Source: Candidatus Latescibacterota bacterium (GTDB lineage: Bacteria > Latescibacterota > UBA2968 > GCA-2709665). Taken from it: DNA of 64,000 nt. Positions within the stretch are counted from its first letter, which is position 1. The number at the start of each line of letters is the position of its first letter. Where the stretch lies: positions 3,392,001 through 3,456,000 of the forward strand of contig OZ244937.1 in assembly GCA_965222075.1 (NCBI GenBank), written 5' to 3'. The position numbers and the translations under genes were made by a program. Of the stretch, positions 15,305 through 64,000 are shown one piece after another. The notes beneath the pieces are model-generated. The model saw only the letters and a list, made by a program, of their open reading frames with translations. It did not search any database and was not told where the DNA came from.

Positions 15305-15603
15305 AGTAGTCAGGCAGAAGTAAAAGACTACGCTTGCGCCTTCGACAGCATCTTCTCCAAACGCAGCCAGCGTGAGAGTTTTCGCCGTTACCTGGAGGGG
15401 CTCTTGCTGGGTTGTGAGCGAAACAAGACCCTCATCGGCCTGCCTGCCTGCGCCTGCCTCCTCGGCCGCTGAAGAGCTGTCGTCTCAGGTGACGGAGATG
15501 CATCGTTAGTGGGGAGTTTTCGGCTGAGTCAGGTGCTGAGCGCTCCCGCGCGGCGTTGGAGTGGAACGTGCCTCTCGCATCTAAACACGAAAGGAGATAA
15601 ACA

Positions 15604-17786: not shown

Positions 17787-17829
17787 ATTTGTCCGCCCAT
17801 TGTATTCCGTTTTGGCGGGAGTGGAGAGG

Positions 17830-17861
17830 CCCCAACGCCGTATAACGCGGGAACGTTGGGC
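17830..17861 (+). other. internally deleted attC-like site
   Basis: CCCCAAC...GTTGGGC only 32 bp apart, between two cassette-type genes. Confidence 0.55.
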
Positions 17862-17886
17862 GTAATTGGTAGACTTTTGTGGGACT

Positions 17887-18288
17887 ATGCGCATCCGAGA
17901 ATTTGAGTCATCTGATGCTGAGTGTCTTGTCGAGATCCTGCGACTGAATGGCCAATATTCGAGCGCAGAGGTCGAAGGTCCAGCCGCTATGGAGCGATTC
18001 GCTCAATGCGATGTAGCCCTGTTCCTTGTCGCCGAGGAAGGAGGTCGACCGAAGGGGCTCCTTCGTGCAGTCTATGACGGCTCGAGAGCTATGGTGCACC
18101 TTCTCTCAGTGCATCCCGAATATCATCGTAAGGGAGTCGGTTCAGATCTACTTGTTGCTGCTCAGTCAGAGCTACGGCGTCGTGGCGCTCCTTCACTCAG
18201 TGTGACTGTAACAGAGGAGAGTGCAGATTTCTGGGAGAAACACGGTTTCAGTCGGTTACCGGTATTTCTGATGCTCAAGAAATTCTGA
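17887..18288 (+). CDS. GNAT acetyltransferase (cassette gene)
   Basis: LSVHPEYHRKGVGSDLL motif A; FWEKHGF. Confidence 0.9.
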   Translation: MRIREFESSDAECLVEILRLNGQYSSAEVEGPAAMERFAQCDVALFLVAEEGGRPKGLLRAVYDGSRAMVHLLSVHPEYHRKGVGSDLLVAAQSELRRRGAPSLSVTVTEESADFWEKHGFSRLPVFLMLKKF

Positions 18289-18310
18289 CCATACTGAGTC
18301 TACCAACACC

Positions 18311-18621
18311 GCCCAACAGCACGTTTTGCGCTGCGGCGCTTTCGCGCCTTGGCCTTCGGCAACCCCTCGACACCCTTCGACAGGCTCAGGGTTCAGACTC
18401 AGGGTGCAAGGGTGCAAGCTCAATGATGGTTCGTTGAGCTTGTCGAAACGAACGCATACTCAGGGTGCATACTCAATGATGGTTCGTTGAGCTTGTCGAA
18501 ACGAACGCATACTCAGGGTGCATACTCAATGATGGTTCGTTGAGCTTGTCGAAACGAACGCATACTCAGGGTGCAGGCTCAGCGGCCGAGCTCGGGTTCG
18601 TAAGTGGCGAGAACGTTAAGC
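18311..18621 (+). other. expanded 311-bp attC site
   Basis: GCCCAAC...GTTAAGC; arms match the reverse complement of attC 55684 and attC 63030. Confidence 0.75.
18420..18575 (+). repeat. 3 x 53 bp tandem repeat inside the attC
   Basis: TCAATGATGGTTCGTTGAGCTTGTCGAAACGAACGCATACTCAGGGTGCATAC starting at 18420, 18473 and 18526. Confidence 0.92.
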
Positions 18622-33699: not shown

Positions 33700-34064
33700 T
33701 GGTGGAGGCGGCGGGAATCGAACCCGCGTCCGAAGGCAGTTCAACGACAGCGTCTACGTGTGTAGTCTACCTTTTGAGTCTCACGCGCCGACACCCCGGT
33801 AAACAGGGTTGCCCACACGCCAGCCCGATTAAAATCTCACCCGGAACCCTCGGGGCGGAGGCGCCCGGGCCAGCCTGCATCAGTCGACGCCCCGGCCATA
33901 TCCTGCAAGCGGGATCTGACGGGACGGGCTGCGCTTTAGTTACGCAGCCAGTGCGTACGAGTTATCGTTCGCAGTTGTGTTTTTCCCCACTGGTTTAACG
34001 AGGTAAATGGGACCTCGACACGCAGCTCTCGTCTCCCCCCCTCCGTCGAAGCCTTGTCGCCCCC
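33700..34064 (-). ncRNA. ssrA: tmRNA, tag peptide ANDNSYALAA (33940-33972)
   Basis: 5' GGGGGCGACAAGGCTTCGAC; 3' GCGGGTTCGATTCCCGCCGCCTCCACCA; internal tag ORF ending ALAA-TAA. Confidence 0.96.
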
Positions 34065-53648: not shown

Positions 53649-54089
53649 TCAGCAGCAACTTCTCAGAGATTCGGCGCTCCATCGCTCTTTCGGTGGATAC
53701 CACCGTCCCTGACCGAGCAACTGGTCTACCACCGCCGCAAATTCTGCTGTCATGGCTTCTCGGAAGATGCGAGATTTCCTCACGGATCGGCTGACTCCTC
53801 CCGGGTACTTTCGCCAGGTCGCAGGGGCATCCCGCTGTACGCCCTCCATCTCCAGCCGACGCCAGATCGTTGATTCCATCTCTGCGGCGTCTTCGGCCGT
53901 AAACGCGCGCACCTTGACGTAGCCCCGGGTGCAGAGCTGCTCAAGGTCCTGTTCGTTCAGTGGTCCGTCAGTCGGCGATGTGTTATTTGTCTCTGAGCGA
54001 AAGGATTCCAAATACTTCCCCCGGACACCAGGACCGAGATCTCCACGGCGATATCCTGGACGCAGCTCGTCTGGATCAGCCTTCTTCAT
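53649..54089 (-). pseudogene. chimera of a BrnA-like antitoxin N-terminus (copy of 60590-60686) and a PhyH-like dioxygenase fragment
   Basis: first ~33 aa nearly identical to ORF 60459-60686; then LNEQDLEQ..RGYVKV...W...VDQLLG. Confidence 0.7.
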
Positions 54090-54142
54090 AGATTCTCCTG
54101 TTGACGTCCACTGCCTGTAGCGCCTTGGCAGACGGCGTTGTC

Positions 54143-54746: not shown

Positions 54747-54829
54747 GCATAACGTTTCTCCGGTTTGCGAACCGCGCAGCGGTTGCGCGGAGGGGCGGAT
54801 GCCCCGTAGCCGGGGGCACGGTGTTACAG
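54747..54829 (-). other. attC site
   Basis: GCATAAC...GTTACAG, family consensus. Confidence 0.8.
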
Positions 54830-54900
54830 GATGTGCCAGTTCAGGATATTGGGCTCCCAGCTTGCTACGGACGGCAAGACCGCTACATAAAAGATACCAC

Positions 54901-55614
54901 TCAGTTTCGATCTATCCCTAATATTGCAGGTAGGTCAGCCAATGAAGTAATTTCGTGGTCAGCTTTGATCTCAGTGTCGTTCATCAGACCTTCACGATTC
55001 AGCCAGACCGCATGCGCTCCGGCCTCACGCGCTCCGGCAACATCGTTTTCCAGGGAATCCCCCACGTGTAATAGCTGCTCCAGCGGACAGCACGCCCTCC
55101 GTGCGGTGATCTGGAAGATGCGTCGATCGGGCTTCTCAACACGCACATCCTGGGAAAGGACAGCAAAGACAAACCGGCCCTCAAGCCCACAGCGGTCGGG
55201 GTAACTATTCCCATTGGACAAAAGTCCGATCTTGAAATGAGGCGCTAGAATGTCAAGAGCAGGCAAGACATCCTGATACAACTCAATATCTTCGAAACGA
55301 TGCTTCAGATATATCTCATTCAAATGAACAGCCAGACTGCGGTCCTCACAGCCAACGCGTTCAAGCGTCCTCTCAAATGCAAGTCGTCTGATCTCCTCAA
55401 GATTCCAGGTCTTGCCCTTCACTTCCTCGGCAAGCCGATTGCGAATCACAATCATTTCGTCCACCGTAAGGGCCACAGCTCGCTCTGCCGGAACGTGCCT
55501 ACGCAGTTCCACTAACGTGTGCTTTAGTGAATGTCTCATGACCTTCTGAAAATCCCACAAAGTCATGTCGCCATCAAAAGAGATCGCTGAAATTCGCAAG
55601 GTACTCGCCTCCAC
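54901..55614 (-). CDS. HAD family hydrolase (cassette)
   Basis: FDGDMTLWD, LSNGN, KPD, HVGDSLENDVAGA; start uncertain. Confidence 0.9.
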   Translation of the reverse strand: MEASTLRISAISFDGDMTLWDFQKVMRHSLKHTLVELRRHVPAERAVALTVDEMIVIRNRLAEEVKGKTWNLEEIRRLAFERTLERVGCEDRSLAVHLNEIYLKHRFEDIELYQDVLPALDILAPHFKIGLLSNGNSYPDRCGLEGRFVFAVLSQDVRVEKPDRRIFQITARRACCPLEQLLHVGDSLENDVAGAREAGAHAVWLNREGLMNDTEIKADHEITSLADLPAILGIDRN

Positions 55615-55683
55615 TAAATGGACAAAGATGCCTCGGCGTATGATGACGACGGTTCTGCCGCTTCCAGAGCTGGGTGGCACTTC

Positions 55684-55804
55684 CTATAACGTTTCGCCGA
55701 TTCGCGAACCCCGAGCTCGGCCGCTGAGCCTGTCGAAGCGTGTCGAAGGGTTGCCCTTAGGGCCAAGGCGCGAATGCGCCGCAGCGCAAAACGTGATGTT
55801 AACT
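55684..55804 (-). other. attC site with nested insert
   Basis: CTATAAC...GTTAACT. Confidence 0.82.
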
Positions 55805-55849
55805 GCTGGCGACCCTTTTTTAGGAAATCCTTCAGTATGCATAGGATCG

Positions 55850-56281
55850 TCAGCTTTCCATTAGGGCTTGTTTGACCCGGTCTGCATATGAATCCAATTC
55901 CTCATCAGGGATACGATCTAGCCACCGTGGATAAACTCTCAATAAACCATCGTCTACTTTTCTAGGATGGATATGAAAATGCACGTGGGGGACTTCCTGG
56001 TGAGCACCTGGCCCATTGCTCTGCCATATGCTTAATCCGTCTAGCTCGAAGGCTTTTCTGACGGTTCGAGAAAGTAAGATCATAGCTTTCATAATCTCAG
56101 ATCCTGTTTCCTCTGACAGGGCATAGATGTCTGGAAAGTGCTCTTTGGGAATGACCAGAATATGCCCAGGGTTTGCTTGCCTTGGATCTATCAGCGCGAT
56201 GACAGAATCCGACTCGTATACCACCCTCGCACTCTTAGTTCCCTCCACGATTTCACAGAAGACACATCTTGATTCATCCAT
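55850..56281 (-). CDS. HIT family protein (cassette)
   Basis: CVFC, GHILVIPKEH, NG..AHQEVPHVHFHIHPR. Confidence 0.94.
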   Translation of the reverse strand: MDESRCVFCEIVEGTKSARVVYESDSVIALIDPRQANPGHILVIPKEHFPDIYALSEETGSEIMKAMILLSRTVRKAFELDGLSIWQSNGPGAHQEVPHVHFHIHPRKVDDGLLRVYPRWLDRIPDEELDSYADRVKQALMES

Positions 56282-56377
56282 ACATCCTTCACCTTGCTTT
56301 GTGCAAGAGATATAATGACGTACGAAAAGGCTCTCCGCGGTAATGGGTGTGTGCTATTCTTTGGTTTTTTCGCTTGC

Positions 56378-56471
56378 AGTTAACGTTCTGGCCACTTGCG
56401 AACCCGCGCAGCGGGTTGCCGAATGGCCGGAGGGAGCGAACGCGCCGGAGCCGCAGCCCGTCGTGTTATGT
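56378..56471 (-). other. attC site
   Basis: AGTTAAC...GTTATGT. Confidence 0.82.
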
Positions 56472-56487
56472 GTAGTTGCAGTCCCGG

Positions 56488-57333
56488 TTATCGCCGGCCT
56501 TGCCATGCATGGCAAGGCCGGAAATGGGCTGATACCTCAAACTTCAATCTGGCTTTCTTCCTGCGAAATGCTAAAGCAGTTTCGTAGTGCTTGGTGATCG
56601 ATCCTCCGTAGTTCTTGTTTATCAGGTCAGCGATACCATCAAATAGGTGCGTGCGATTGAATTCGGGCAGCGCGATGTGGTCAGAATAGGTGCCAATGAG
56701 TTTGATGTACTGTTCCGCAGAATAGTTCGCTGTCCACGCGTACACTCGGTGGATAGGATCGGCAAAAGCGGTAGTTCCGGGTTCTGGGGACTCTGATGTC
56801 GTCGGAGTACTGGGATCCCGAGGGGAATCTGAAACTACATAATGCTTGCTATAAACTTCCTGGACTTCCGCAAAGAAACCTTCGTGTTTTCTTACGTGTT
56901 GGTTGGAGAAGATGGCCAATGATCCCCTGGCCTTCAGGGTGTCACGGGCTTTAATGAATCTGACTCTTGGACTCACCCAGTGGAATGCAGTCGCGGAGAT
57001 CACAAGGTCAAACTTGCTAGCCGAGTCCCAATCTTCGAAAGGACACAGGACGAAGCAAACGTTCTTGTAGTTGTTGAGTCGCGCCCTCGCAACCTCGATC
57101 AAATCTTGGCCAATATCCAAACAGGTCATTTCGCAACCGATGGTGGCAAATAATCTCGAAGCCTGTCCGGTTCCACACCCGACTTCCAGGATTTTTCCGC
57201 TTCTATCCATTCCGGAGAGGTCCAAAACATCCCTGACAAGCTCATCAGGGTATCCGGGCCTCACTTCGTCATAGAGCGAGGCAACGGTATTGAAAGTGGT
57301 TTTGAGATCAGGGCGGGGCATTAGAATTCCCAT
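56488..57333 (-). CDS. class I SAM-dependent methyltransferase (cassette)
   Basis: YDEVRPGYP, LEVGCGTGQ, SATAFHWV. Confidence 0.92.
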   Translation of the reverse strand: MGILMPRPDLKTTFNTVASLYDEVRPGYPDELVRDVLDLSGMDRSGKILEVGCGTGQASRLFATIGCEMTCLDIGQDLIEVARARLNNYKNVCFVLCPFEDWDSASKFDLVISATAFHWVSPRVRFIKARDTLKARGSLAIFSNQHVRKHEGFFAEVQEVYSKHYVVSDSPRDPSTPTTSESPEPGTTAFADPIHRVYAWTANYSAEQYIKLIGTYSDHIALPEFNRTHLFDGIADLINKNYGGSITKHYETALAFRRKKARLKFEVSAHFRPCHAWQGRR

Positions 57334-57383
57334 GATTTGGGTTTAGGCGGCGCAGGGAGGCGTCGCTCTGGGACTACAATTGC

Positions 57384-57468
57384 ACATAACGTCCCGGCTG
57401 TTCCTGAACCGTGTAGCAGTTGGGTCAGAAGGAGCCAAGCGACTGGAGCCAGGAACAGCCTGTTATGT
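57384..57468 (-). other. attC site
   Basis: ACATAAC...GTTATGT with GGCTGTTCCTG/CAGGAACAGCC stem. Confidence 0.85.
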
Positions 57469-57534
57469 GTCTGTAGCAGTTTGCGATCGGAAAAGCGATA
57501 GAGAGGCGACCATCACCCTTCTGTTTTGTGTCTT

Positions 57535-58080
57535 TCAGGGTTTTACAGCCTGAGCAAAGAACAGACTCTGAGAATAATCGTCATACACCTTCCACTTAAA
57601 GATTTCAAAACCTGCTGTCTCGACTTCCTGAACCAGACTCTCTGGCAAGCCCCAGAAACGCGTTGCGATTCCATTCTCTATTTTGCATCGGGTCACAGGA
57701 TCAAACGGATAATCTGCATTCTTTGGCTCACCACATTTTGTCATGACGATGAATAACCCCTGAGACTTCAGTACACGATGCACATTCTTCAAGAATGCAA
57801 TGCGATCTTCGCCGATGATACAATGTAGGCAAAGGGCGTCTATGATCACGTCGAAAAACCCATCCTCATACGGCAAATCGAGGACGTTCCCAACTCGGAA
57901 ATCCGCTCTCAAATTCTGTTCCTCACCCTTTTCCTCTGCCCAAGCAATCGCCGTCGGAGAGATATCGATTCCATAGGCTTGAAAGCCCTTCTCCGAAAGG
58001 AGCAAAGAAAGATCGCCGGCACCACATCCTAACTCAAGCAAAGTTCCCGATTCCAACTCCAACTCTCGCAATACATTGGT
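57535..58080 (-). pseudogene. class I methyltransferase (cassette), 5' end disrupted by an IS4 remnant
   Basis: LLELGCGAG, GIDISPTAI, CLHCIIG; N-terminus replaced by transposase sequence. Confidence 0.8.
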
Positions 58081-58870
58081 CACTTTGCCGAAGTTCCAGG
58101 TCGTCCGACCTGCCTGTGCGTTGCACGCACGCAGACAGGTCAAGCGAGATGGTGAAGTCACACTTGACTGGCAACAGACCTGCCTGTGCGTTGCACGCAC
58201 GCAGACAGGTGCAAGATCAAGTCGACCACCAGATCATAGGGCAGATGAAATCCACTGAAGAAACGTTGAATCCTGCGATAGTTGGACTTCTGCTTGGCTT
58301 TGCCGTTGAGAACGTTGGCCAGTTTGCTGAAGTTCACTGTTGTCAGTTTGATGAGGGATAGGATGAACGCGCTGACCTGCCTGTGCGTTACCGCACGCTT
58401 GCCTGCGCGCAGCGCGTCTGCCTGTGCCGAAGGCAGACAGGCAAGCAGGCAGACAGGTGAATTTCACTCGGGCTTTATGCCAGAGAAAATGCCATTGCAT
58501 TACCTCTTGCAATTGGTTAACTTGGGGAGACATGGACCTGTGCCTTTCTTATGAATGAGTGGTTGGATTGTGGCCAACCCAAACCTAACTCATTTCATCT
58601 AAAAACGCAGGTCTTTTCTATTGAGTGTGTAGGAAATCGCGGGCGCTTTGAAAGGGCCTTCAGACAGCATAAATGCCTGCTCGACATTTCCCAAATCCCA
58701 TTTTGGCCCCTGAGGCTGCTCATTGAGACCAAACATCGAGGATACTTTAAATGTTTGGCCTGAAAAGCAAGAAAATTCACGATAACAAATTTCGTAAGTG
58801 ATTTTTTTTCAGACTGTTATTTCGCCTGTAAAATCCTACACACTCTTTTCTATTTTGTCGTGTACCTTGA
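58081..58870 (-). mobile_element. truncated IS4-family element with three palindromic inserts in the transposase
   Basis: removing the inserts restores HKARVKFISAFIL...SNYRRIQRFF...ISLDRTTWNFGK; probable end CAAGGTACACGACAAAA near 58870. Confidence 0.8.
58109..58457. repeat. CCTG...CAGG palindromic micro-elements: 58109-58139 and 58179-58209 (identical 31 bp) and nested 58376-58457
   Basis: CCTGCCTGTGCGTTGCACGCACGCAGACAGG, each inserted at GA^T. Confidence 0.9.
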
Positions 58871-58901
58871 TCCGGTCCATAAATCCCAAAACTGCCATGG
58901 C

Positions 58902-59006
58902 ACATAACGTTCTGGCCACTTGCGAACCCGCCGAGCACAGCGAAGGTGGGTTGCCGCTAGGCCGAAGGGAGCGAATGCGACCGAAGCGCAAGTGGACGTG
59001 TTACAC
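58902..59006 (-). other. attC site
   Basis: ACATAAC...GTTACAC with CCACTTGCG/CGCAAGTGG stem. Confidence 0.85.
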
Positions 59007-59067
59007 GCCGGCGCCTTGATAGCGAAGCTCATTTGGCGCAGGAGTTGCGCACCCGGCATCTCGCCAA

Positions 59068-59772
59068 TCAATCCCCAGCCAGCAGGAATCCGATCCGCCA
59101 TCTACCTTTGAGATACTCGAACTGGGCACGGTAGCCGATGGGGCTTCTACAATCTGAGGCCAAAACGTAACCAGAAACTCCATCCAAGGTCGTGACCCTC
59201 TTCCATTCTCTTCCGGCCTTGTCTCGCGGATTCGGCTCGTTCACATCTTTGACGATTTCGTAGCTCAGAGTATCAATTGCCGCTGAACTTAGGCTCATCT
59301 CGGGCCGCAGTGGAGCAGCCTCTGACTTGATAGCCGAATAGAAATAGGCGTCGTAAGCGTCTGGCCATCGAGAAAAGAAGTATGGAATTATGAAAACTGT
59401 GCAGCTGTCATTCTCACACGTCGCGCCAAGTGCCAGCAATTCCTCTAGGGTGCTCCACAACCTAGACTTCTTTGGCTTCGATCTCAGGTTCCAGTAATCG
59501 AGAAACCCTTCCCTTCCGAATCGTCCTCCGTAACTAACGTGAATATCTGGTTTCAGATGATCTAGGACAAAATCGAGGTCTTTCCGCTCAACGGCTGAGG
59601 CCAACTCTGAGCGAAAGTTACCGAAGGAGTCGCTGAGATAAGTTTCGTCAATCGGTAGCAGTCGAGTAACACCCGTACCTGCCAGGAGACTCAAGGGTAG
59701 GGCTATAACCAGGAACGTAGCTCTGAGTATCATGTCAAATCGTTGGTGCGAAGGTAGTTGGTTTGTCTTCAT
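59068..59772 (-). CDS. exported protein with C-terminal SH3b-like domain (cassette)
   Basis: signal-like hydrophobic stretch; W..V.T.DG..GYV...RSPIGYRA. Confidence 0.8.
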   Translation of the reverse strand: MKTNQLPSHQRFDMILRATFLVIALPLSLLAGTGVTRLLPIDETYLSDSFGNFRSELASAVERKDLDFVLDHLKPDIHVSYGGRFGREGFLDYWNLRSKPKKSRLWSTLEELLALGATCENDSCTVFIIPYFFSRWPDAYDAYFYSAIKSEAAPLRPEMSLSSAAIDTLSYEIVKDVNEPNPRDKAGREWKRVTTLDGVSGYVLASDCRSPIGYRAQFEYLKGRWRIGFLLAGD

Positions 59773-59807
59773 ACACCTGTCGGGTGCCTCCGACTTCCGA
59801 CGCTGGC

Positions 59808-59889
59808 GTGTAACGTTTCAGTGCCCCCGAACCGCGAAGCGGTTGGGCGAAGGGCCGAATGGCCCGAAGCCGGGGGCACAATGTTAGGC
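59808..59889 (-). other. attC site
   Basis: GTGTAAC...GTTAGGC with GTGCCCCCG/CGGGGGCAC stem. Confidence 0.85.
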
Positions 59890-59899
59890 GAAGTCTCCG

Positions 59900-60328
59900 T
59901 TACTGAAAGCGGACCACGCATTTGTATCGTTGAACACCCGGATATTTCTCGCCGAGAGGTTCTATTTCAAATCCACATGATCTGTAGAAGCCAACGGCAT
60001 CGTCGTCAGTTTCTGCCTCTAACTGGCCAAACCTCAGATCGTCACGAACGAACGCAATCAGTCTCCGTCCTATGCCTACACCCCTCCATTCAGGATGAAC
60101 GGCGATGTGGGTGATGATACACCGGCTTCGATCGGATGAATCCAAACGTACGATTCCAACGGGCGCGTCCTCGCATCTGGCAACCCATAACGTCGTGAGG
60201 GAGTTCGAAGTGCAAGACTGCATGAGCTCTCCAATAGCAGCCTCTGTGGGTGCACCAACGGACTCGGCAAGAATACTCGCCACATCCTTTGCGTCCGACT
60301 CATCAGCATGAAAACGATGGATCTGCAT
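59900..60328 (-). CDS. GNAT acetyltransferase (cassette)
   Basis: IAVHPEWRGVGIGR, ETDDDAVGFYRSCGF. Confidence 0.92.
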   Translation of the reverse strand: MQIHRFHADESDAKDVASILAESVGAPTEAAIGELMQSCTSNSLTTLWVARCEDAPVGIVRLDSSDRSRCIITHIAVHPEWRGVGIGRRLIAFVRDDLRFGQLEAETDDDAVGFYRSCGFEIEPLGEKYPGVQRYKCVVRFQ

Positions 60329-60340
60329 CTTGGAAATGTC

Positions 60341-60430
60341 GCCTAACGTCTCATGATTTGCGAACTCGCGAAGCGGGTTGCCGAAGGCCAAGGCGCGATC
60401 AGCGCCGCAGCGCAAATCGCTGTGTTACAG
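60341..60430 (-). other. attC site
   Basis: GCCTAAC...GTTACAG with GATTTGCG/CGCAAATC stem. Confidence 0.85.
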
Positions 60431-60458
60431 GAAGAGAGAAAGATACAGCCTGTGTATG

Positions 60459-60686
60459 TCAACTGGTGCTCTTGGTAGAGTCCTCCGGTCCCTCTGCCGC
60501 GTCCATAAACGACCGAAGAGCATTGTTTACGGCCTCGTCCGTGGGAAATGCCTTCGCAACGTCTGGGTGGAGTAGAACCAAATTTGTCCCTGAGCAAAAG
60601 GATTCCAAATACTTACCCCGGACACCAGGACCGAGATCTCCACGGCGATATTCTGGACGCAGTTCGTCTGGATCAGCCTTCTTCAT
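60459..60686 (-). CDS. BrnA-like antitoxin
   Basis: DELRPEY...GVRGKY...LHPDVAKAFPTDEAVNNALR; overlaps brnT. Confidence 0.85.
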   Translation of the reverse strand: MKKADPDELRPEYRRGDLGPGVRGKYLESFCSGTNLVLLHPDVAKAFPTDEAVNNALRSFMDAAEGPEDSTKSTS

Positions 60687-60945
60687 AGATCCTCCTTTCC
60701 TGACGCGTCATTAAACGTGCACTGATTATTCTCGTCTTTCCGGCTCGTTGGGTATGCAAGATGACTACCAATCGATTCAATCTCGACAGGCCAAAAGTAA
60801 GATATCGTTCTTCATCCACCGAGTGATCGGGATCGGGGAAGGTTATTGCCAGCGGGTCCCCAAAAACAGTGGCCCCTTCGTGAAAACTGAGGTCGTGTTT
60901 TCGCTCGTTCGCTTTGGCTTTTTCTGAATCCCATTCAAATTCCAT
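60673..60945 (-). CDS. brnT: BrnT family toxin
   Basis: FEWDSEKAKANERKH..F, DPDHS..EER, RIISAR. Confidence 0.93.
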   Translation of the reverse strand: MEFEWDSEKAKANERKHDLSFHEGATVFGDPLAITFPDPDHSVDEERYLTFGLSRLNRLVVILHTQRAGKTRIISARLMTRQERRIYEEG

Positions 60946-61026
60946 CAGTTGACGGCTTCCTCATCAATAACAGTAGCCCCAGTGTTTTATTATCCCACAG
61001 CAAAAGCGATTCTCTGTTCTCTTTTC

Positions 61027-61101
61027 CTGTAACGTCTGCCGGTTTGCAAACCTGCGAAGCGGGTTGCCAGAAGGGCCAAGGCGCGAAACGTGCTGTTATG
61101 G
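61027..61101 (-). other. attC site, partly deleted
   Basis: CTGTAAC...GTTATGG. Confidence 0.75.
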
Positions 61102-61156
61102 GCCGTGGCACGCAATAGCCTCATCGAAAGTTCATGAGGTGGTGGGTAACACGTCT

Positions 61157-61366
61157 CTAATCATGTAAGATCTCACCCGCCAATGGAGGGCGTACTGCTG
61201 AATCTTCCAGAGTCAGAACCGCAATGGTGGTGCCCTGAGTATCCACGAACTCTACCTCCGACGCCTCGTCGTCCGCATATCTATGTACCACTGTGCCCAC
61301 ATCTCCGGCCACCAGACCGTGCTCTACAATCGACTCCTTGAGAACCACCAGATCCAATTCAGCCAT
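61157..61366 (-). CDS. DUF4926-like small protein
   Basis: ELDLVVL...GL..GDVGTVV...EVEF...G.T.AV.TL; AAGGAGG RBS. Confidence 0.85.
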   Translation of the reverse strand: MAELDLVVLKESIVEHGLVAGDVGTVVHRYADDEASEVEFVDTQGTTIAVLTLEDSAVRPPLAGEILHD

Positions 61367-61381
61367 TTCAATCCTCCTTGA

Positions 61382-61714
61382 TCAAGCTGGATAGGCTGTC
61401 ACCAGACGAGGCCTATCTGAACCAGGTTCAACAATCCAGACCGTCCGAATCCGAACACTCGAACCCGATGGGGTTTTCACACGACCATCCAAAATATACT
61501 TGGTGCCATGACGTGTCTGTATAACTTCGGAGACCTGCTCATTGCGCGCAATGGATGCTAAATCAGCTTTGAGGACAGAGGGGTCCTCCTGCCCATACCC
61601 AACACCACGGAAGAATCTCGCCTTTGCTCGACCTACGGCATGTATATCGGAAAGCAGATATTGCTCGACTTTCTCAGTAGGTATCGCCACATTTATTCCG
61701 TTAGGCAACTTCAT
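61382..61714 (-). CDS. DUF6883-like putative toxin/nuclease
   Basis: MKLPN...YLL...H..G..KARFF...HGTKY...TVWI...PRLVTAYP. Confidence 0.85.
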   Translation of the reverse strand: MKLPNGINVAIPTEKVEQYLLSDIHAVGRAKARFFRGVGYGQEDPSVLKADLASIARNEQVSEVIQTRHGTKYILDGRVKTPSGSSVRIRTVWIVEPGSDRPRLVTAYPA

Positions 61715-61757
61715 AGAATCAGTATTTGTGAATCAGATCCAATTTTCACGCCAGGGC

Positions 61758-61850
61758 CCATAACATTTCGCCGGTTTGCGAACCTGCGAAGCAGGTTGCC
61801 CGAAGGGCCAAGCTGCCGCAGGCGGCGCAGCGCAAACCGCTGTGTTCTGG
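61758..61850 (-). other. attC site
   Basis: CCATAAC...GTTCTGG with GGTTTGCG/CGCAAACC stem. Confidence 0.82.
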
Positions 61851-62030
61851 GAAATTGGAATCCACTTGAAAATATGTCTAAATTCCTGCGCAATAAGTGT
61901 CAAGGCGTTGAACCGTGGCTATCGCGATATGCTGCCCAACTACGGTTTCATCGTCATTCCTGCCCCTCAGGCTATGCATAAGGGCGTCTGCGCAATCACT
62001 TGTTTGGTGACAAAACCGGAAAAACAAACA

Positions 62031-62984
62031 TCAAAACTGGACAACAAAATCAATGTACGGCACACCGGGGAAAAATGCTTCCTCTCCTATCATATTGATA
62101 AGCGCGAGGTCTACACTCAATCGTCTGCCAAAGAATCGCAGTCCATAAGAGATCAAGGTCTCGTCTACACCCGGAAAGATCCAGTTTTCCGAAACAAATG
62201 CTATCCGTCGAGTCAAGCGTTTCTCTCCGCCAACCATCACCATAGGATGATCTGCTAAATCTCGGTCGACAAAGCCATAACCGAGTCCTGCAGTCAGGCT
62301 TGCATCGGGTTGCCCAAACGTTATTACACCATACAATATGCCCACAACTGAGTACTCATCAGGGACACGCACAAGAAGCGCGCCCACGGAAAACTGAACG
62401 GGATCTTCTTGTACTAAACCAAATTTTGGCGCGAAAAAAAAGAGTTGCTCATCCATATCTACGCCGGGAAAGATAGAAACCCCACCTCCCAGTGTAAAAC
62501 GATCAGTTACCCCATAAGCAAATCCTGGAAAAAAGAGATAATAATCGGAAAAATAACCTCTGCCCTGTTCCAGCATACGCGCCGTAGGTGCAAAGAACAG
62601 GCGCGTTGTATTGGGATTTTTAAACCAGATCTCACCATCGTGTATCGAAGTAACAGGTACTGTTTCAATGTGTTTAATCTTTGAAATGGGAATGTGGATT
62701 ATGCCCAGGTCCGTCTCAAATGCAATCTCTTCATCACCAATCTGCACGATGCGTCCGACATTTGTCGATGCATCCATTGTCTCAATCACCTGAATATGAT
62801 TAGAATCGGGAATTGCCAACTGGGCCATTAGGCATGCGCTTTTAAGTTGCGTATCCTTCGCACGTTCTTCTGCAAAGGCAATACTCATGGCGTCCAGAGA
62901 AATCGTAGTCCAGGTGGAGAACAAGAGTAACCATAGCATCCGTGTGCCAACTACAGGGGTATCGATGCATACTTTAGGTACCAT
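62031..62984 (-). CDS. exported, probable outer-membrane beta-barrel hypothetical protein (cassette)
   Basis: signal-like N-terminus; NPNTTRLFFAPTAR; amphipathic strands; C-terminal Phe. Confidence 0.8.
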   Translation of the reverse strand: MVPKVCIDTPVVGTRMLWLLLFSTWTTISLDAMSIAFAEERAKDTQLKSACLMAQLAIPDSNHIQVIETMDASTNVGRIVQIGDEEIAFETDLGIIHIPISKIKHIETVPVTSIHDGEIWFKNPNTTRLFFAPTARMLEQGRGYFSDYYLFFPGFAYGVTDRFTLGGGVSIFPGVDMDEQLFFFAPKFGLVQEDPVQFSVGALLVRVPDEYSVVGILYGVITFGQPDASLTAGLGYGFVDRDLADHPMVMVGGEKRLTRRIAFVSENWIFPGVDETLISYGLRFFGRRLSVDLALINMIGEEAFFPGVPYIDFVVQF

Positions 62985-63029
62985 GAGATCTCATTCTTTC
63001 GAGAATACTGATGGCCGTTCTCCAATTTC

Positions 63030-63171
63030 CCATAACGTCTGACGGTTTGCGAACCCCGAGCTCGGTCGCTGAGCCTGAACCCTGAGCCTGTCGAAGGGTG
63101 TCGAAGCGTGTCGAGGGGTTGCCGAAGGCCAAGGCGCGAATGCGCCGTAGCGCAACACCGTGCTGTTAGAC
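63030..63171 (-). other. attC site with doubly nested insert
   Basis: CCATAAC...GTTAGAC. Confidence 0.82.
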
Positions 63172-63188
63172 GATCGCGGCGACCAACC

Positions 63189-63524
63189 TTATTCGCAGTT
63201 CTGCCTCTCGAAATTTCGAACAACCATTCCCACACACTCCGTGAAACCTTGCTTAACGTAGAAATCAGACACATCTCGGTCGCACACAAGGTCAATCATG
63301 TAAAAATGCCCAAACTCCTTGAGCATTCGCCTGACAAGCTCAGCTCCAATGCCCATACCATGGTAGTCGGGCAGTACACCGAGGTGAGGAATATATGCAC
63401 AGGACACACCATCCGAGATGGCAGAAATCCAACCGACGACCTCTCCTTCTGGCGAAATAGCCAGAACAAAGAAATCGCTGCCCTGCAAAATTCTAAGATG
63501 CGCCTCTGGGGAGGGAGGATTAGG
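63189..63524 (-). pseudogene. GNAT acetyltransferase cassette gene, 5' end cut by the IS
   Basis: PNPPSPEAHLRILQGS...AISDG..AYI..L.VLPDY.G.GIG; frame runs into the IS end. Confidence 0.8.
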
Positions 63525-64000
63525 CCTTAAATAAGCGAGTTCCTTAAATAAGCGAGGTTTTGTTGTTTGCTGAACAGAAAGGCCATTTTGTGTTACGATT
63601 TGGTTGATAGAAGTATCCGTGCTGCCTAATATGGTGCGCGGGAGGTCGTTCTGGCGTTTGTTGAGTGTTTGTTGGAGTGGTAAAGCGAACCGTTATTTGT
63701 CGGGTGGGCGTATTTGTCCGTTGCGTCGCCGTGGGCGTCGTGGGTCCCCTGGTACAAGGTCACGGTTCGTGCCGGTGTCAGGTGAAGCCGGTTCGTTCGA
63801 TGGTAGCCCAAGCGCTCAAGAGTCTTTTCAGGGATGGCTGATAGCCGATGATGCGCACCCTCGTGCTTCGGGCGTGTCGCACGACACGACAGGGAAACAG
63901 GATGATGTGTGTGAGGAAGGTCCGAAAGTCCATACGGATATATTGTCGGCGATGGTTTTTTTGATGCATCATCAGGGCAAACCACGACTTGATGTTCCAG
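63525..64000 (-). mobile_element. IS1380-family element, 3' end (continues beyond window)
   Basis: terminal CCTTAAATAAGCGAG present twice; transposase C-terminus. Confidence 0.75.
63778..64000 (-). CDS. IS1380-family transposase C-terminus (partial)
   Basis: WNIKSWFALMM...MDFRTFL..II..PCRVVRHAR...RIIGY. Confidence 0.75.
   Translation of the reverse strand, partial: WNIKSWFALMMHQKNHRRQYIRMDFRTFLTHIILFPCRVVRHARSTRVRIIGYQPSLKRLLSAWATIERTGFT

Follow-up and report, generated by a model that had tools for sequence, protein, structure and literature searches.

Canonical integrons, such as the class 1 and class 2 integrons and those of Vibrio with the integrases IntI1 and VchIntIA, hold arrays of cassettes that mostly carry a single gene, with AAC and GTT triplets and an attC site at the 3' end of each cassette. 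Excision of a cassette as a circle restores the pairing of R' and R'', which in most cassettes runs past the 7-nt boxes over 9-11 consecutive nt (Bouvier 2009, PMC2727003, citing Rowe-Magnus 2003), and within an array R' and R'' need not pair (Loot 2017, PMC5371416). The I2 insertion of the integrase and the extrahelical bases of attC are treated as what makes integrons work. I2 is described as accommodating these bases, and XerCD, which has no I2, as acting on a CTX phage stem that has no extrahelical bases and mimics duplex DNA (Escudero 2016, PMC4792948). In this paper we describe a cassette array in a 64-kb stretch of a Candidatus Latescibacterota genome (contig OZ244937.1), which is called the window hereafter. 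The ten attC sites and nine complete cassettes at window positions 54747-63171 share all of these canonical traits of layout and restored pairing, but they belong to a family in which the ends pair to positions 14-20, where canonical pairing stops by 13. The extension to 9-11 nt was already known; the long arm with its wobble appears to be new and points to a non-canonical integron. On balance we favour the reading that in such an integron the recombinase binds the repeat, over its full length, as an arm of the cassette once this has been excised and folded.

We number arm positions from the G of GTT, with the crossover at G^TT; in the array the bottom strand is +, and the genes of the cassettes lie on the - strand. 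The locus has the make-up of an integron array, with tandem cassettes between palindromic attC sites, AAC and GTT triplets and co-oriented genes, and circularising the cassettes at G^TT restores the complementarity of R' and R''. The first-pass annotation of the window proposed that each cassette has a terminal inverted repeat extending well beyond the 7-bp R box, and this repeat is real. Over positions 8-15 the nine cognate end pairs have a mean of 5.9 matches of 8, against 3.2 of 8 in the 72 non-cognate pairs, and the cognate sum was reached by 10 of 1,000,000 permutations of the window cassettes. All five end pairs that had been quoted are found in the sequence as written, and a separate cassette at 17855-18317 has the same repeat (18/21), as had been claimed. 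The ends pair over 14-21 positions in eight of the nine array cassettes. Counted per position, 6-9 of the nine match at positions 4-10, two at position 11 and 6-8 at positions 12-16, with chance levels beyond. Cassette 4 is the exception, with eight ungapped matches and more only if gaps are allowed. The repeat was also said to differ for every cassette, which holds in part only, as the bases at positions 4 and 8 do not vary and there is a fixed G/A asymmetry at position 11 (six of ten window cassettes, and 75 of 99 cassettes outside the window). Similarly, the flanks of a single in-array site were said to be generally unpaired; they pair over four positions in eight of the ten sites, but those of site 4 pair over eight, because cassettes 3 and 4 begin alike, and those of site 9 reach eight with one mismatch.

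The long arm is a property of a wider family. One genome scan with an inner-attC pattern returned 84 loci, with 51 of the 80 titled records coming from Ca. Latescibacterota; 21 of the 84 were dropped as chance matches, judged by title and appearance. We defined 108 distinct cassettes (99 outside the window) by profiles of the site interior only, positions 1-4 included. A structure-only attC detector was too noisy genome-wide and was limited to filling gaps between profile-found sites and to annotated arrays. Some of the 108 cassettes are probably two merged ones, which dilutes the signal. The longest open reading frame (ORF) is on the top strand in 102 of the 108. Among the 99 cassettes outside the window, positions 12-16 have 314 matches, against 168.9 when ends are permuted and 206.7 when they are permuted within loci (0/20000), and positions 17-19 have 121 against 75.5 (0/20000). 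At positions 20-22 the excess is marginal (432/20000), and at positions 23-30 there is no excess pairing. The flanks of 159 in-array sites are near background save at fixed positions. The same result is found in a non-homologous set of 80 cassettes, one per homology cluster, with 195/320 matches at positions 13-16 (94.8 permuted) and 94/240 at positions 17-19 (60.1 permuted), each at 0/20000. For the 63 clusters with good pairing at positions 5-9, the run continues in 45 of 49 at position 13 and in 41 of 45 at position 14, and past this it continues about two thirds of the time per step to position 20, giving a core plus a tail.

The arm is also found in Bacteroidota. We curated by hand a set of 12 cassettes from a Chryseobacterium plasmid array, which was found via a recombinase homolog, and an Emticicia array; three ends were set by eye and positions 1-8 helped to choose ends. 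Positions 12-15 match in 44/48 cases against 27.3 permuted (0/50000), and positions 16-19 give no clear signal in these 12 cassettes. The Chryseobacterium array (L108 20270-28780) also has group II intron sequences and an IS110 element, both inserted directly behind R'', and an element that recurs between its cassettes.

How far does pairing extend in known integrons? Our controls are small, with 35 class 1/2 cassettes from plasmids and 12 Vibrio anguillarum cassettes, the latter being the only ones from a chromosomal integron. We left out of the counts the first cassette of L093 and the dfrA1 cassette of L092, which are 5' ends of other cassettes, two Vibrio array gaps, duplicates, class 1 sites truncated or interrupted by an intron or insertion sequence (IS), and Emticicia cassette 5, which has no clean end. 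Consecutive pairing spans 7-13 positions in 32 of the class 1/2 cassettes and 4-5 in the other three, and 8-11 in the Vibrio cassettes. In class 1/2 there are more matches at positions 9-12 than after permutation (78/140 against 42.9). At positions 13-16 matching is at chance both there (33/140 against 31.5) and in V. anguillarum (6/48 against 8.6). In the integrons that we compared, arm extension is thus routine to about position 12 and not beyond, and the long arm is very probably specific to the family. Pairing beyond the 7-bp R box is published as far as 9-11 nt (PMC2727003), so that only the stretch beyond about position 12 is out of the ordinary. The class 1/2 pairing lengths (L001, L086-L106) peak at 8 (12/35) and at 12 (9/35), and this sharp edge may mark the IntI arm. 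One of the fetched records, L104 (MK672802, 27091-41427), is deposited as a Vibrio phage, yet it carries the host intIA and the start of the superintegron.

One of the more striking features of the arm is position 11. In the 99 cassettes it is Watson-Crick in 8, a bottom-strand G-T pair in 75 and a top-strand G-T pair in none; in the 80-cassette set the shares are 74% bottom-strand G-T, 9% Watson-Crick and no top-strand wobble, the R'' arm having G there in 67/80 and the R' arm having A in 72/80. The bottom-strand G-T pair is found in 12/12 Bacteroidota cassettes, and in class 1/2 cassettes it accounts for only 3%. Since position 11 is a consensus feature of each arm, the wobble is kept in the hybrid in-array sites.

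Folding calculations on 84 cassettes agree with the proposal that excision into a circle is required for reliable formation of the R stem: it pairs with a median probability of 0.99 in the circle, compared with 0.30 in the array, and the circle has the higher value for 83/84. The stem does not need its full length for this, as folding saturates at seven cognate positions with a probability of 0.97 (42 cassettes, every second one). Positions 12-15 must therefore be kept for another reason. Mismatches at positions 12-20 are not enriched in bottom-strand G-T pairs, and together with the early saturation in the model this fits a protein that reads Watson-Crick geometry better than it fits stem stability. 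The bottom strand is the lower in energy in 76/84 circles. The ends covary although they meet only across the excised circle, and therefore the substrate would be a hairpin or cruciform, even for an enzyme without I2. RNAalifold with DNA energies returned no bottom-strand structure, and this result was discarded.

The interior of the sites departs from the canonical geometry as well. We computed geometry from sequence for the 128 scorable family sites of 167; window site 1 took another register and window sites 2, 3 and 8 scored under the cut-off. The spacer is longer on the cleaved strand by +2 to +4 in 116/128 family sites, whereas the offset is 0 in 25/30 class 1/2 and 14/15 Vibrio sites. 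The commonest form is 7/4 (53/74 sites), in place of the near-symmetric central spacer of 5-6 nt, and the loop is multi-branched. No bulge is found in 81/128 family sites, while 29/30 class 1/2 sites have one on the R''-L'' arm, so that the extrahelical bases of canonical sites are mostly missing here. The 9-bp L stem of the family covaries and is likewise mostly free of extrahelical bases. A possible lead is the veb1 site, a poor IntI1 substrate that is described as having a larger spacer and one extrahelical base (PMC3518468).

If the sites are unusual, the question arises which enzyme uses them. A search of the family loci with IntI1 found only recombinases of 33-37% identity, all without the insertion, and no full-length IntI matched in the fetched 20-kb loci. 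These short recombinases are found in the integrase position in L049 (7296-8201, -), L057 (7899-8780, -), L062, L011, L013, L042 and L108 (14983-16026, +), the last being the Chryseobacterium locus, whose enzyme is likewise short and oriented as its array. In six genome records the short recombinase divergently adjoins a conserved attI. It carries PF00589 and PF13495 and has the tyrosine recombinase fold, with R150, K175, H240, R243, H266 and Y275 invariant in 110 sequences. The integron-integrase model TIGR02249 scores best, yet with 239.6 and 223.6 bits it stays under the cut-off of 265, and the integron integrase structure PDB 2A3V is the best match by sequence and by predicted fold. Compared to IntI the short enzyme is 41-42 residues shorter across the I2 region. 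The insertion segment has 76 residues against 117-118, and the distance between flanking motifs is 66 against 107-108 (65-67 in 85/85 homologs with both motifs, among 120 listed), so that the IntI-specific insertion of about 35 residues with helix I2 is absent. Among 8000 scored candidates, 7142 are homologous to the short recombinase at E <= 1e-30, some of them named Bacillota and Chloroflexota. In a tree of 26 rows, 18 short enzymes and two IS-type recombinases lie on one side of a branch (98/100), and the four IntIs and XerC/D lie apart. The base of the tree is unresolved, and a loss of I2 is not separable from never having had it.

The attI profile, built from the six recombinase-adjacent sites, gave 19 distinct forward hits, and attI contains a covarying palindrome. 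First cassettes abut it at GTT. A family site lies downstream of 16 of these hits; in 15 of the 16 the two ends of the first cassette pair with each other at seven or more of positions 1-8, and in 10 there is G-T at position 11. We regard the short recombinase as the likely cognate enzyme of the family arrays. Sites of this attI type occur in L062, L079 (twice), L077, L068, L053, L038, L065 and others, with several per genome. In one case, L020 at about 15455-15516 (-), attI is joined to an attC left arm at a common L-box motif; it looks as if an exchange took place at the L box, which is normally blocked by I2 and the extrahelical bases.

Xer recombinases need full duplex arms, which are 11 bp long, and the arms of Cre are 13 bp; these would end at positions 12 and 14. 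In our proposal, the recombinase monomer at the R box would bind the entire repeat as its outer arm, rather than the 7-bp consensus alone. That the arm is bound by the recombinase in this way is probable in our judgement. Excision would place the two ends of a cassette either side of its attC, and the folded bottom strand would then offer an arm duplex that is some 14-15 bp long, trails off softly to about 20 and has its fixed G-T wobble at position 11. The short recombinase, like XerCD on folded CTX phage DNA, would require a substrate that mimics duplex DNA, and hence presumably the long Watson-Crick arm. The T at position 11 on the cleaved strand might be a recognition base, present in the folded attC and in the occupied attI alike. 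The G opposite would keep the bottom strand paired, while the top strand would get an A-C mismatch. The asymmetry might in this way help to choose strand and orientation in place of the extrahelical bases; we put the wobble as strand signal forward as a tentative suggestion, to which we would give somewhat less than even chances. The hybrid in-array sites would lack the arm, so that excision would be rarer than re-integration, and the bias towards integration that the first-pass annotation suggested is plausible on this model. Finally, arm, core and arm would be passed on as one unit when new genes are captured.

Several observations weigh against our proposal. Of the six attI-adjacent short recombinases only two are intact, with three frameshifted and one truncated where the locus ends, and near most attI hits there is no recombinase, although one enzyme may serve scattered attI-led arrays. 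The clade of short enzymes includes two IS-type recombinases and therefore does not consist of integron enzymes only, and a Persicobacter short recombinase comes without a resolvable array. A bulge on the R''-L'' arm is present in 29/128 family sites. The top strand of the circle folds too (median 0.95), so that the role of the wobble in strand choice is only inferred and is the weakest step of the mechanism. The soft tail at positions 15-20 is unlike the sharp footprint that one would expect of a bound arm. Furthermore, Cury 2016 (PMC4889954) judged recombinases without the domain not to be IntI; the verdict as given there concerns 21 cases, and for the nearest four the number of attC sites was below three. 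And a canonical IntI may be encoded elsewhere in these genomes, beyond the 20-kb loci.

This last point leads to the best of the alternatives, that the arrays are ordinary integrons served by a canonical IntI encoded elsewhere, with the arm doing no more than making up for an L stem that is short and a loop that is branched, and with the short recombinase as a bystander. The crossover triplet, the array layout and some extension of the arm are indeed canonical, many short recombinases are broken or absent, and the published rejection of domain-less recombinases as IntI (PMC4889954) would agree with it. We nevertheless think it unlikely: seven cognate positions are enough for folding, and the extrahelical bases read by IntI are missing from most of the sites. 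Moreover, no canonical IntI matched in the fetched family loci, the short enzyme takes the intI position by attI in six genomes, and a related one heads the Chryseobacterium array with the same arm signature.

A second alternative concerns the origin of the ends, and goes back to the suggestion in the first-pass annotation that one end is copied from the other when a cassette is created. More generally, an arm could be copied at birth or homogenised later by template switching or folded-hairpin repair, with the arm length being a copying tract. The geometric decay of the tail from 15 to 20 and the lack of bottom-strand G-T bias among the mismatches at 12-20 speak for this. So do the changes between homologous cassettes: 140 positions changed on both arms and are still paired, whereas at 56 only one arm changed and at 40 a change on both arms broke the pair. 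But position 11 is Watson-Crick in only 8/99 cassettes, which is the non-cognate rate, so that copying would have to skip a single base, and the Bacteroidota arms end near position 15. In addition, the same arm pair is found across genomes on at least five unrelated genes (NUDIX, methyltransferase, GNAT, HAD in window cassette 1, and unknown genes), and NUDIX homologs carry differing arm pairs. Where arms are shared, the core subtype tends to be shared too (core score 0.31 against 0.17 in 19 pairs, which are not independent). We think it unlikely that one end is copied whole from the other, given the fixed G/A asymmetry and the recurrence of an arm pair on genes that are unrelated, and as a general explanation of the repeat we rate templating still lower than an ordinary integron. 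Reuse of arm, core and arm as a unit appears to fit these comparisons better than fresh copying of ends, and bears on how cassettes originate. Given the soft tail and the large number of double changes, repair of the hairpin may still have a part, by supplying compensatory changes that are then kept by selection. Lastly, an expression signal, with bases 11-13 as a start codon or the ends pairing in the mRNA, is very improbable: ATG stands at positions 11-13 in 51/108 cassettes, but it opens a frame of at least 100 aa in only 8 of the 51, position 11 is an A-C mismatch on the RNA-sense strand with no top-strand wobble in the 99 cassettes, and the A at position 11 in Bacteroidota is mostly followed by bases other than TG.

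Returning to the binding arm of a non-canonical integron, a close parallel is the CTX phage with XerCD, where a folded single strand without extrahelical bases is recombined by enzymes without I2 (PMC4792948). The family differs in that it has an apparently dedicated recombinase, an attI of its own and many cassettes per array, whereas CTX uses the host dif site, and the short enzyme groups apart from XerC/D in the tree. Like an attC cluster that has no integron integrase (CALIN), the window has ten attC sites, and within its 64 kb there is no integrase gene and no attI. Unlike a CALIN, related arrays start at the family attI, often by a recombinase that would presumably escape a profile based on I2. 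Detection tools call IntI by its insertion (Cury 2016, PMC4889954), while Smyshlyaev 2021 (PMC8138268) notes that this insertion is not fully conserved. The same paper names an 'Integron-like' subgroup of tyrosine recombinases, and its description of them gives no attI, attC or cassette array; the term attC does not occur in the main text. In the open-access literature, with subscription papers and supplements outside the search, we found no arm of 14-20 bp, no wobble at position 11 and no arrays of an integrase without I2. The family could represent a second class of integron in at least two phyla, Ca. Latescibacterota and Bacteroidota, with an integrase without I2, attC sites without extrahelical bases, and strand and direction read from the long wobble arm and the lopsided spacer; we hold this possibility at slightly under even. 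If it is true, the short enzymes could represent a living stage intermediate between IntI and Xer-like recombinases, and some 'integrase-less' attC clusters could be explained. If arrays without either hallmark are active, a class is missing from current counts of integrons, an enzyme does exist for some orphan attC clusters, and the step from Xer-like recombinases to IntI could be tested with living enzymes. Pairing to about position 15 with G/A at position 11 provides a recognition rule for such cassettes.

The individual cassettes of the window show the variety of genes and sites. All attC sites of the array are on the + strand and all cassettes on the - strand. The distal array end is attC site 1 (54747..54829), which is followed by cassette 1 (54823..55690) with a HAD hydrolase (54901-55680) and arms at 54823-54838 / 55675-55690 (14/16). 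Site 2 (55684..55804) has a repetitive extragenic palindromic (REP)-like hairpin in its variable part. Cassette 2 (55798..56384) encodes a HIT protein (55850-56281) between arms 55798-55812 / 56370-56384 (13/15), and cassette 3 (56465..57390), after site 3 (56378..56471), a methyltransferase (56488-57333) between arms 56465-56485 / 57370-57390 (18/21); both have G-T at position 11. Site 4 (57384..57468) is of a divergent sequence type, with a 9-bp ungapped L stem and a 7/3 spacer. Cassette 4 (57462..58908) has a methyltransferase (57535-58200) with REP-like repeats upstream, and is the one whose arms pair at only eight ungapped positions. The next site, site 5 (58902..59006), again has a 9-bp ungapped L stem, with a 7/4 spacer, and cassette 5 (59000..59814) holds a 234-aa ORF without a Pfam match (59068-59772) and arms 59000-59013 / 59801-59814 (13/14; position 11 G-T).

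Site 6 (59808..59889) is of the divergent type too, with a 6/3 spacer. Cassette 6 (59883..60347) encodes a GNAT protein between arms 59883-59898 / 60332-60347 (13/16), and cassette 7 (60424..61033), after site 7 (60341..60430), a BrnT-family toxin (60673-60945) with a small partner ORF (60459-60686) between arms 60424-60440 / 61017-61033 (16/17), in each case with G-T at position 11. Site 8 (61027..61101) is short and its L stem weak. Cassette 8 (61095..61764) has DUF6883 and DUF4926 genes, arms 61095-61109 / 61750-61764 (14/15) and a mismatch at position 11. After site 9 (61758..61850), cassette 9 (61844..63036) holds a 317-aa ORF without a Pfam match (62031-62984), and its arms, 61844-61859 / 63021-63036 (15/16), are Watson-Crick at position 11. 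Site 10 (63030..63171) contains a REP-like insert; for its GNAT cassette (63189-63488) no matching 5' arm was found within 63490-63720, and a degenerate site remnant at 63610-63700 marks the decayed proximal end of the array. The separate cassette (17855..18317, +) also encodes a GNAT protein (17866-18288), with arms 17855-17875 / 18297-18317 and G-T at position 11. Its attC (18311..18621, -, which is the bottom strand here) is about 310 nt long. Upstream of this cassette there is no full attC or attI, only a degenerate site remnant at 17790-17860.

Some minor observations concern repeats in the window. REP-like hairpins swell the attC loops at 18311-18621, where they occur in tandem copies, at 55684-55804 and at 63030-63171; the first of these sites is far longer than the range of 57-141 nt given for attC (PMC5027507). 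Three copies of a different REP-like repeat are found at 58100-58440 in cassette 4, at the start of the methyltransferase gene and upstream of it. The only match in an Rfam scan of the window was a transfer-messenger RNA gene (33700-34064, -), and megablast of the array against plasmids gave no match, with only a chance match for one attC as query. Past the distal array end, 53984-54098 is a 115-bp copy, 95% identical, of 60581-60695 at the start of the small ORF of cassette 7; this distal copy is fused to a different frame.

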